NCBI RefSeq assembly: GCF_041886205.1
Contig: NZ_CP169029.1
Direction: 5' to 3' (one strand)
Length of the DNA: 64,000 bases
From: Escherichia coli
Lineage (GTDB): Bacteria; Pseudomonadota; Gammaproteobacteria; Enterobacterales; Enterobacteriaceae
Positions 40,701 to 43,700 of this stretch are shown one piece after another. Positions within the stretch are counted from its first letter, which is position 1; every line of letters begins with the position of its first letter. The position numbers are program-made.

Positions 40701-43700
40701 TGCCGTCGGTACACCGCTACATACGTGGCAACTGGTTAGCCAGGGGCGAACATCTATTGCTCATAAAGGAATGCTGCTGGCGGCGAAAACTATGGCAGCA
40801 ACCACAGTCAATCTCTTCCTTGATTCAGGGCTATTGCAAGAATGCCAACAAGAGCATCAGCAAGTAACGGACACGCAACCGTATCACTGCCCTATCCCGA
40901 AAAACGTGACACCGTCACCTTTAAAATAACAACAACAACGCAAACACAACAACCGAGGAATGCCCATGAGTATGTCATCCATACCGTCGTCCTCCCAATC
41001 CGGGAAGCTCTATGGCTGGGTCGAAAGAATTGGTAACAAGGTTCCCCATCCTTTTCTGCTCTTTATCTATTTGATTATCGTACTCATGGTGACGACGGCA
41101 ATTTTGTCGGCCTTTGGCGTCAGTGCGAAAAACCCGACCGATGGTACGCCGGTGGTGGTGAAAAACCTGCTCAGTGTGGAAGGATTACACTGGTTTTTAC
41201 CCAATGTTATTAAAAACTTTAGCGGTTTTGCTCCACTTGGTGCGATCCTGGCGCTGGTTTTAGGTGCCGGTCTGGCGGAGCGCGTCGGCTTACTGCCAGC
41301 ACTAATGGTTAAAATGGCATCGCATGTTAATGCCCGCTACGCTAGTTATATGGTGCTGTTTATTGCTTTTTTCAGCCACATTTCTTCCGATGCGGCGTTA
41401 GTGATCATGCCACCGATGGGTGCGCTGATTTTTCTGGCGGTGGGCAGGCATCCAGTTGCAGGTTTACTGGCTGCCATTGCAGGCGTAGGTTGCGGCTTTA
41501 CGGCTAATTTACTGATTGTCACAACCGACGTGTTGCTGTCGGGGATCAGCACGGAAGCGGCAGCTGCGTTCAATCCGCAAATGCACGTCAGTGTAATTGA
41601 TAACTGGTATTTTATGGCCAGCTCCGTAGTCGTACTGACGATTGTTGGCGGCCTGATAACCGACAAAATCATCGAGCCACGGTTAGGTCAATGGCAGGGA
41701 AACAGCGATGAGAAACTGCAGACATTGACCGAAAGTCAGCGTTTTGGTTTACGCATAGCAGGTGTCGTATCGCTACTTTTTATTGCTGCGATTGCGCTGA
41801 TGGTGATCCCGCAAAACGGGATATTGCGCGATCCGATTAATCACACCGTGATGCCATCACCCTTTATTAAAGGTATCGTGCCACTGATCATTCTTTTTTT
41901 CTTTGTTGTCTCGCTGGCTTATGGCATCGCTACCCGCACAATTCGACGTCAGGCGGATTTACCGCATTTAATGATTGAACCGATGAAAGAGATGGCGGGA
42001 TTTATCGTGATGGTTTTTCCCCTCGCCCAATTTGTCGCCATGTTTAACTGGAGCAACATGGGGAAATTCATCGCCGTGGGGCTGACCGATATACTGGAAA
42101 GTTCAGGGCTTAGCGGCATCCCGGCGTTTGTCGGTCTGGCGTTGCTTTCCTCTTTCTTATGCATGTTTATTGCCAGCGGTTCCGCAATCTGGTCGATTCT
42201 TGCCCCCATTTTCGTACCAATGTTTATGCTACTTGGCTTTCACCCGGCATTTGCGCAAATCCTCTTTCGTATTGCCGACTCATCCGTATTGCCTTTAGCG
42301 CCGGTATCTCCTTTTGTTCCACTGTTTCTTGGATTCCTGCAACGCTACAAACCAGACGCGAAACTGGGTACTTACTATTCGTTAGTCTTGCCCTATCCGC
42401 TTATCTTTTTGGTGGTATGGCTGCTGATGTTGCTGGCGTGGTATCTTGTTGGTCTGCCGATAGGTCCGGGGATTTCCCCACGTTTGTCTTAAGAGAGAAC
42501 GGATGCTGAGATTACTTGAAGAAAAAATTGCCACGCCACTGGGTCCACTGTGGGTGATTTGCGATGAACAATTTCGTCTGCGGGCGGTTGAATGGGAAGA
42601 GTACAGCGAACGCATGGTGCAGCTGCTGGACATCCATTATCGCAAAGAAGGCTATGAGCGCATTTCTGCCACCAACCCAGGCGGTTTAAGCGACAAGCTT
42701 CGTGATTATTTTGCCGGTAATCTTAGCATTATTGATACGCTTCCCACTGCCACAGGGGGGACGCCATTTCAGCGCGAAGTCTGGAAAACACTACGCACTA
42801 TCCCCTGCGGGCAGGTAATGCATTACGGCCAACTGGCTGAACAATTGGGCCGCCCTGGCGCGGCGCGTGCCGTTGGTGCGGCAAACGGATCGAATCCCAT
42901 CAGCATCGTCGTACCTTGCCATCGGGTTATTGGCCGAAACGGCACCATGACCGGATATGCAGGCGGAGTTCAGCGAAAAGAGTGGTTATTGCGCCATGAA
43001 GGTTATCTTTTGCTGTAAACATTAAACAATTTGTGCCAGCTTGTTCACACTTTTATGTAAAGTTACCCTTAACAACTTAATGGTTTTCAAATAGATAGAC
43101 ATATATTTACATCTAATATCGGAATTCTCTGCTGTTAAGGTTTGCTTAGACTTACTTGCTCCCTAAAAAGATGTTAAAATTGACAAATATCAATTACGGC
43201 TTGAGCAGACCTATGATCCCGGAAAAGCGAATTATACGGCGCATTCAGTCTGGCGGTTGTGCTATCCATTGCCAGGATTGCAGCATCAGCCAGCTTTGCA
43301 TCCCGTTCACACTCAACGAACATGAGCTTGATCAGCTTGATAATATCATTGAGCGGAAGAAGCCTATTCAGAAAGGCCAGACGCTGTTTAAGGCTGGTGA
43401 TGAACTTAAATCGCTTTATGCCATCCGCTCCGGTACGATTAAAAGTTATACCATCACTGAGCAAGGCGACGAGCAAATCACTGGTTTTCATTTAGCAGGT
43501 GACCTGGTGGGATTTGATGCTATCGGCAGCGGCCATCACCCGAGCTTCGCTCAGGCGCTGGAAACCTCGATGGTATGTGAAATCCCGTTCGAAACGCTGG
43601 ACGATTTGTCCGGTAAAATGCCGAATCTGCGTCAGCAGATGATGCGTCTGATGAGCGGTGAAATCAAAGGCGATCAGGACATGATCCTGCTGTTGTCGAA

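Follow-up and report, generated by a model that had tools for sequence, protein, structure and literature searches.

Introduction

The negative autoregulation of fnr has been textbook knowledge for Escherichia coli since the late 1980s, and its mechanism was worked out in 2007. In that year Mettert and Kiley reportedly found that the downstream FNR site of the fnr promoter (Pfnr) suffices to repress in vitro and is indispensable for repression in vivo, and that both the cluster and the dimer of FNR are required for repression at Pfnr. The upstream region of the same promoter is said to have been assigned by these authors to IHF, not to FNR.

Later work is in line with an autoregulatory loop. 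Myers et al. (2013, PMC3688515) placed fnr in their Category 2 as directly repressed by FNR, with the site at -0.5 and with reference to Mettert and Kiley (2007) (Table 1), and FNR autoregulation is given as known in another publication (PMC6446978).

In this study, we analyzed a window of 64,000 nucleotides of E. coli DNA, the term window being used here for this whole stretch. A preliminary description, made from the sequence alone, had pointed out a near-perfect pair of FNR half-sites at 43180-43193, just upstream of the fnr coding start, and had regarded it as consistent with negative autoregulation. Our analysis indicates that 43180..43193 is almost certainly the operator through which E. 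coli fnr is negatively autoregulated. This operator has been characterised before as the downstream FNR site of Pfnr and as such is already known.

Materials and Methods

We constructed a symmetric position weight matrix (PWM) from 62 other FNR sites located under the ChIP-seq peaks of Myers et al. (2013, PMC3688515, Table S6), and the fnr site itself was excluded from it (leave-one-out). The E. coli C record NZ_CP029371 was tried as an annotation template but proved colinear with the window only in parts.

Orthologous loci were searched for in one genome per species by means of a degenerate pattern that covers Cys16-Cys23 of FNR, which resulted in 120 loci and 115 usable species. This species set, chosen by coding-sequence pattern, comprised Enterobacterales, Vibrionales, Aeromonadales and Pasteurellales together with a few other gammaproteobacteria.

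Results

The fnr coding sequence was located at 43213..43965 on the + strand of the window, an open reading frame of 250 aa that RefSeq annotates as 'fumarate/nitrate reduction transcriptional regulator Fnr', and the local gene order was abgA-abgB-abgT-ogt-fnr-uspE-ynaJ-ynaI-mppA. Several complete E. coli genomes matched the region 42500..44100 at 100% identity, and 5403 of 5426 genomes contained it. A stretch of 101 bp centred on the operator site was likewise retained, with at least 99% identity in 5348 of the 5399 E. coli genomes. The Rac prophage is absent from the window.

The operator, TTGACAAATATCAA (43180..43193, no strand assigned), is a 14-bp inverted repeat with a 4-bp gap, and 9 of the 10 bases in its half-sites (TTGAC-AAAT-ATCAA) agree with the FNR consensus. 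The one mismatch to TTGAT-N4-ATCAA is a C for T at position 5. It lies within the 194-bp ogt-fnr spacer, separated from the fnr ATG (43213) by a gap of 19 nt, and thus belongs to the promoter from which its own binding protein is expressed. The exact sequence occurred a single time in the window, at 43180..43193, and was present in 0 of 100 shuffles. The half-site pair and its place just upstream of the coding start were therefore recovered as the preliminary description had given them, with the exact coordinates.

The position of the operator within the promoter was derived from the 5' RACE sequencing of Kim et al. (2012, PMC3415461). The portion of their supplementary file 2 that covers fnr places the transcription start site (TSS) at NC_000913.2 1397576 on the minus strand, supported by 65 reads; this is the sole fnr TSS given in that portion, and the 5' UTR is stated to be 26 nt. 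The 51-nt fnr promoter sequence in the same portion, AAGGTTTGCTTAGACTTACTTGCTCCCTAAAAAGATGTTAAAATTGACAAA, with the end ...TTGACAAA, maps to 43137..43187 of the window and puts +1 at the A of 43187 (+ strand), in the middle of the operator. With this TSS, the operator therefore extends from -7 to +7, which agrees with the '-0.5' in Table 1 of Myers et al. The 5' UTR occupies 43187..43212 on the + strand and contains a Shine-Dalgarno-like GAG at 43203..43205, and its GAGCA was conserved in the Enterobacteriaceae alignment.

In addition, a sigma70 ChIP-seq peak at 1397587 lies near the fnr TSS. Judged from the sequence and the mapped TSS, TGtTAAAAT (43172..43180, + strand) is the putative extended -10 element of fnr. 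Its hexamer TAAAAT occupies 43175..43180, that is, positions -12 to -7, and the final T of the hexamer is also the first T of the FNR operator, so that the operator overlaps both the TSS and the last base of the presumed -10 hexamer. Further upstream, CTTACT (43151..43156, + strand), which matches TTGACA at 3 of 6 positions and stands at an 18-nt spacer, may act as a weak -35-like hexamer; the CTTAC block was conserved in the Enterobacteriaceae alignment. A consensus promoter scan of 42900..44150 called no sigma70 promoter, as no sequence qualified under its -35/-10 criteria. This outcome is explained by the weak -35 and the extended -10 type of the promoter, because the scan needs a reasonable -35. 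These observations are best explained by a Pfnr of the sigma70 type in which an extended -10 is combined with a weak -35.

The position of the operator bears on the direction of the regulation. Positive rather than negative autoregulation through the site would have a precedent in the Haemophilus influenzae fnr promoter, for which positive autoregulation was suggested when its repressor is absent (PMC12345214). We regard it as very improbable here, however, since FNR activates from about -41.5 (class II) or about -61.5 (class I), and 19 of the 23 FNR-activated promoters in Myers et al. (2013, PMC3688515) had the site at -41.5 ± 4, whereas from -0.5, on top of the start point, such contacts are impossible. 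Furthermore, fnr is given as repressed in that study, and the Pasteurellaceae site is also found directly after a -10-like element. Negative autoregulation, the reading favored by the preliminary description, is borne out by the published direct repression of fnr (PMC3688515), by the FNR ChIP peak and by the site on the TSS.

Evidence for FNR occupancy in vivo came from the published data. Table S6 of Myers et al. (2013, PMC3688515) gives TTGATATTTGTCAA, the reverse complement of the operator, at NC_000913.2 1397570 near fnr, with a PatSer score of 13.66 and an ln p of -12.16, where the authors had set their threshold at -10.75; the table also marks this site as lying at a ChIP-seq peak. [quoted passage not shown]

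With our own PWM, the operator scored 14.85 bits, which was rank 2 of the ~64,000 window positions and corresponded to the 42nd percentile of the PWM training sites. Positions with a score at least as high are expected by chance at 0.30 per 64 kb and at 0.001-0.003 per 194-bp ogt-fnr spacer. Ranks 1, 2 and 4 in the window were the published ChIP-bound FNR sites of uspF (30091..30104), fnr and fnrS (33646..33659), respectively, and the PWM can be considered to behave sensibly because ranks 1 and 4 coincided with the published uspF and fnrS sites. The two checks proposed in the preliminary description, a scan with an FNR matrix and a comparison with the mapped promoter, thus both turned out in favor of the site. 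Its score was above threshold by PatSer and second in the window by our PWM, and the TSS at 43187 in the fnr portion of the Kim et al. data falls inside the site and not far from it.

By itself, a one-mismatch consensus match is without significance. Matches to TTGATNNNNATCAA (TTGAT-N4-ATCAA) with at most one mismatch were not enriched in the window, with 6 observed versus 3.36 expected, and 14 of 100 shuffles reached 6. This observation, and the many high-scoring FNR sites without an FNR peak in Myers et al. (2013, PMC3688515), would suit a chance resemblance to the consensus, devoid of regulatory function, in AT-rich intergenic DNA. Yet the probability of such an origin is negligible in view of the PWM rank and the very small number of such sites expected in the spacer, the ChIP-seq and ChIP-chip peak over the site, its centring exactly on the mapped TSS, and its retention at this promoter position in 106 of the 115 species despite diverged surroundings. 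The operator thus owes its significance to the leave-one-out PWM score, the place on the mapped TSS and the conservation in orthologous fnr promoters.

Specifically, these 106 species had an FNR site scoring 12 bits or more whose end lay 14-46 nt, mostly 16-21 nt, upstream of the fnr ATG; the species are phylogenetically related and do not stand for 106 independent events. The distal zone, roughly six-fold larger, had a site of at least 12 bits in only 6 species. By chance, 0.12-0.38 sites would be expected over all proximal zones together, and sites were ~100-fold more frequent per position there than in the distal zone. Among the sites picked by the PWM, TTGA and TCAA were essentially invariant and spacer positions 6, 7 and 9 were free, the half-site invariance being partly circular because the sites were picked by PWM score. 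A C at site position 5 (TTGAC) was preferred in 71 of the 106 species, and this sub-consensus left half-site was almost always kept in Enterobacterales, whereas the Vibrio and Aeromonas orthologues carried TTGAT, not TTGAC. Less dependent on this selection by score was the alignment of 17 Enterobacteriaceae, in which the block AAAGATGTTAAAATTGAC..ATCAAT was nearly invariant and the sequences beyond ~60 nt upstream were unalignable.

The promoter element adjoining the operator was compared in the same species. TG was present at the extended -10 position in 62 of the 106 species, and the hexamer was TAAAAT in 57 of the 106. In all four orders the site came directly after a TGnTAAAAT-like -10 element, the two elements sharing 1 nt in Enterobacterales and standing 1 to 3 nt apart in Vibrio, Pasteurellaceae and Aeromonas; the design with the operator on the start point is therefore ancient. 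The autoregulatory loop is not universal, since the proximal site was weak or decayed in 9 species. The operator was decayed and the -10 element kept in Photorhabdus caribbeanensis, P. namnaonensis, Xenorhabdus ehlersii, Tatumella ptyseos, Pantoea sp. Mb-10 and Salinivibrio costicola. In P. thracensis, a close relative, the operator is intact.

Taken jointly, the alignments allow a tentative reading that we hold to be possible but rather doubtful. The fused extended -10 element and FNR operator on +1 have persisted in at least four gammaproteobacterial orders, but in a few lineages the operator may have been lost independently, which would suggest repeated loss of FNR autoregulation, and the TTGAC left half-site of Enterobacterales might tune the set-point of the loop. 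This comparative material is only mildly new, and part of it may already be described in comparative-genomics work.

The preference for C at site position 5 also has a bearing on the core promoter. Together with the fact that TTGACA (43180..43185) is a perfect sigma70 -35 consensus, it would accord with a -35 hexamer of a promoter firing downstream, the palindrome being incidental. We give this reading hardly any credence. The -10 candidates at 16-18 nt are TGAGCA, GAGCAG and AGCAGA, none of them like TATAAT, and transcription would have to begin no more than a few bases from the fnr ATG (43213), or already within the reading frame; in addition, the promoter scan found no promoter, and the TSS in the fnr portion of the Kim et al. 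data (43187) lies inside the hexamer's own site. Nor was the hexamer conserved, as shown by TTGAT in the Vibrio and Aeromonas orthologues. An FNR operator remains the preferred reading of these bases.

The position that separates TTGA from GTGA discriminates FNR sites from those of CRP (cAMP receptor protein). A CRP site instead of an FNR site would be conceivable from the one family to which the two proteins belong and from the similar geometry of their sites, which are related 22-bp palindromes, but it is exceedingly improbable, as both operator halves (TTGA...TCAA) carry T-A and not G-C at this position, the cores ATTGA/TCAAT match TGTGA/TCACA at 3 of 5 bases each, and binding of FNR was detected by ChIP with the delta-fnr control peaks removed (PMC3688515).

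One further FNR-like sequence was considered upstream of the promoter. TTAATGGTTTTCAA (43077..43090, no strand assigned) is centred at -103.5, has two mismatches and scored 2.4 bits. This put it at rank 180 among the window positions, and 0.37 matches of this quality are expected per 200 bp. Only the right part of this region, TCAAnnnGAT at ~43087..43097, was conserved in Enterobacteriaceae. As a second FNR operator it was rejected on account of the 2.4 bits and of the single motif counted at fnr by Myers et al. (2013, PMC3688515), and it is a poor FNR match and probably not an FNR site. With regard to IHF, the IHF ChIP-chip table of Myers et al. (PMC3688515) contained no peak at 13975xx-13978xx, and inspection of the 43077..43090 region by eye gave no convincing match to the IHF consensus.

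Discussion

The assignment of 43180..43193 as the fnr operator is based on the site itself, its PWM score, the in vivo occupancy by FNR, the TSS, the placement of fnr in the directly repressed class, and the conservation, all of which are documented here or in the cited papers, and no observation spoke against it. Occlusion as the physical mechanism, the dependence on cluster and dimer, and a homeostatic purpose of the loop are likely, either from established knowledge or from the arrangement of the promoter.

Under such a mechanism, FNR would hold a [4Fe-4S] cluster without oxygen, dimerise and bind TTGAC-N4-ATCAA. The bound protein would lie over +1 and over the downstream end of the -10 element, and in this way compete with RNA polymerase; this competition at the core promoter would lower fnr transcription, the anaerobic repression being roughly two-fold. 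With oxygen, the cluster would be destroyed, FNR would become monomeric, the operator would be vacated and the promoter would be fully active. Such a loop would hold the level of FNR protein roughly constant, so that activity would be set by oxygen and not by abundance. The loop matters in this respect, as oxygen sensing would rest on the state of the iron-sulphur cluster and not on the amount of protein. For the present analysis, the chief value of the operator is that of a positive control.

Among the described systems, the closest is the downstream FNR site of K-12 Pfnr, which is the same element, with an identical 14-mer, the same 19 nt to the ATG, the same TSS and the same flanking promoter. 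No difference was seen in the element itself; the host strain here is not K-12, its window being without the Rac prophage. The crp promoter offers a likeness from established knowledge, as it also belongs to the gene of a global regulator of the CRP/FNR family and bears a palindromic site for its own product. The half-sites differ, with GTGA for CRP at crp and TTGA in the fnr operator, and the mechanism of crp autoregulation also involves a divergent transcript.

ndh and the other Category 2 operons (PMC3688515) share with fnr the regulator, the 14-bp motif and anaerobic repression. However, ndh has its sites upstream of the core promoter, at -50.5 and beyond, and is repressed in a more complex manner (PMC3688515), whereas the single site on +1 at fnr represents the simplest occlusion geometry. 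Finally, the window also contains promoters that FNR activates as class II, those of fnrS and uspF, with the same motif and published ChIP-bound sites (PMC3688515). At fnrS, the centre of the site lies ~42 nt upstream of the 5' end of the RNA, where it is activating, in contrast to the fnr site, which is located on the start point and is repressing.

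FNR Sites at uspF and FnrS

In the window-wide scan with our FNR matrix, which was built from 62 published ChIP-bound sites with the fnr site left out, the top score (16.95 bits) fell to TTGATCTAAATTAA at 30091..30104, situated 76 nt upstream of the uspF start codon (ATG at 30181). This sequence is the reverse complement of TTAATTTAGATCAA, the ChIP-bound uspF site recorded at position 1433720 (NC_000913.2) in a published site list (Myers et al., 2013, Table S6; PMC3688515). The same list and the matrix place another published FNR site, TTGACTTCGCTCAA, at 33646..33659, belonging to the small RNA FnrS, which was annotated at 33493..33610 on the minus strand (Rfam RF01796, 134.8 bits). 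The centre of TTGACTTCGCTCAA is ∼42 nt upstream of the FnrS 5′ end and its location is a class II activating position; one motif is thus put to an activating use at FnrS and a repressing use at fnr within 10 kb. In addition, the Rfam scan identified the small RNA genes MicC (28562..28682, minus strand; RF00121) and McaS (36988..37083, plus strand; RF00115).

Two further FNR-like sequences were found. The matrix and consensus scans detected TTTATTTACATCAA at 44190..44203, with 12.7 bits and one mismatch to the FNR consensus, in the early coding region of uspE, whose ATG is at 44117. The examined part of the coordinate-sorted Table S6, where this sequence would be expected, does not list it (Myers et al., 2013; PMC3688515). 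The other, TTAATTAACATCAA at 749..762, ranked third in the window-wide scan with 14.2 bits. It is flanked by the 3′ ends of two convergent open reading frames (62..700, plus strand, and 900..1700, minus strand), and it therefore lies outside any promoter region.

Variation Upstream of fnr among Species

A motif, TCAAnnnGAT, located at 43087..43097 and ∼95 nt upstream of the fnr transcription start site, was kept in most Enterobacteriaceae fnr upstream regions, while the sequence flanking it could not be aligned. Mettert and Kiley reportedly described, in 2007, an IHF-bound region upstream of fnr, and the motif may be that same region. No peak was recorded at the motif region, however, in the published IHF ChIP-chip list (Myers et al., 2013; PMC3688515).

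Comparison of the 90 nt upstream of fnr revealed six loci in which the operator had decayed at the homologous position and the −10 element was kept. TCAA was changed to TGAA in Photorhabdus caribbeanensis and P. namnaonensis, the left half read TTTAC in Xenorhabdus ehlersii, both halves were degraded in Tatumella ptyseos and Pantoea sp. Mb-10, and the spacer carried a 1-nt deletion in Salinivibrio costicola. A site was retained in the close relatives Photorhabdus thracensis, Pantoea AS-PWVM4 (a weaker site of 10.3 bits) and S. sharmensis.

In Pasteurellaceae, the fnr operator was TTGCGTTAGATCAA or TTGAGTTAGATCAA, and the Dam methylation site GATC was present in the operator at all nine loci. 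These operators were located 28–46 nt upstream of the fnr ATG, a greater distance than in enterics. Dam-dependent control of fnr through a GATC-containing operator has been described for H. influenzae (2025 mBio paper, PMC12345214).

Genome Layout Compared with Other E. coli

A search of the E. coli collection returned six matches to the fnr region on plasmid-labelled records. In the window, uspF directly adjoins ttcA and no Rac prophage is present between them (∼30798..30840), whereas E. coli C (NZ_CP029371) carries a Rac-like prophage of ∼17.5 kb there. E. coli C also holds ∼2.4 kb, comprising pgrR, ycjY and a pseudogene, between mppA and mpaA, which the window lacks (∼48371..48404). The spacing between the uspF and fnr FNR sites is 23 kb greater in E. 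coli K-12 than in the window.
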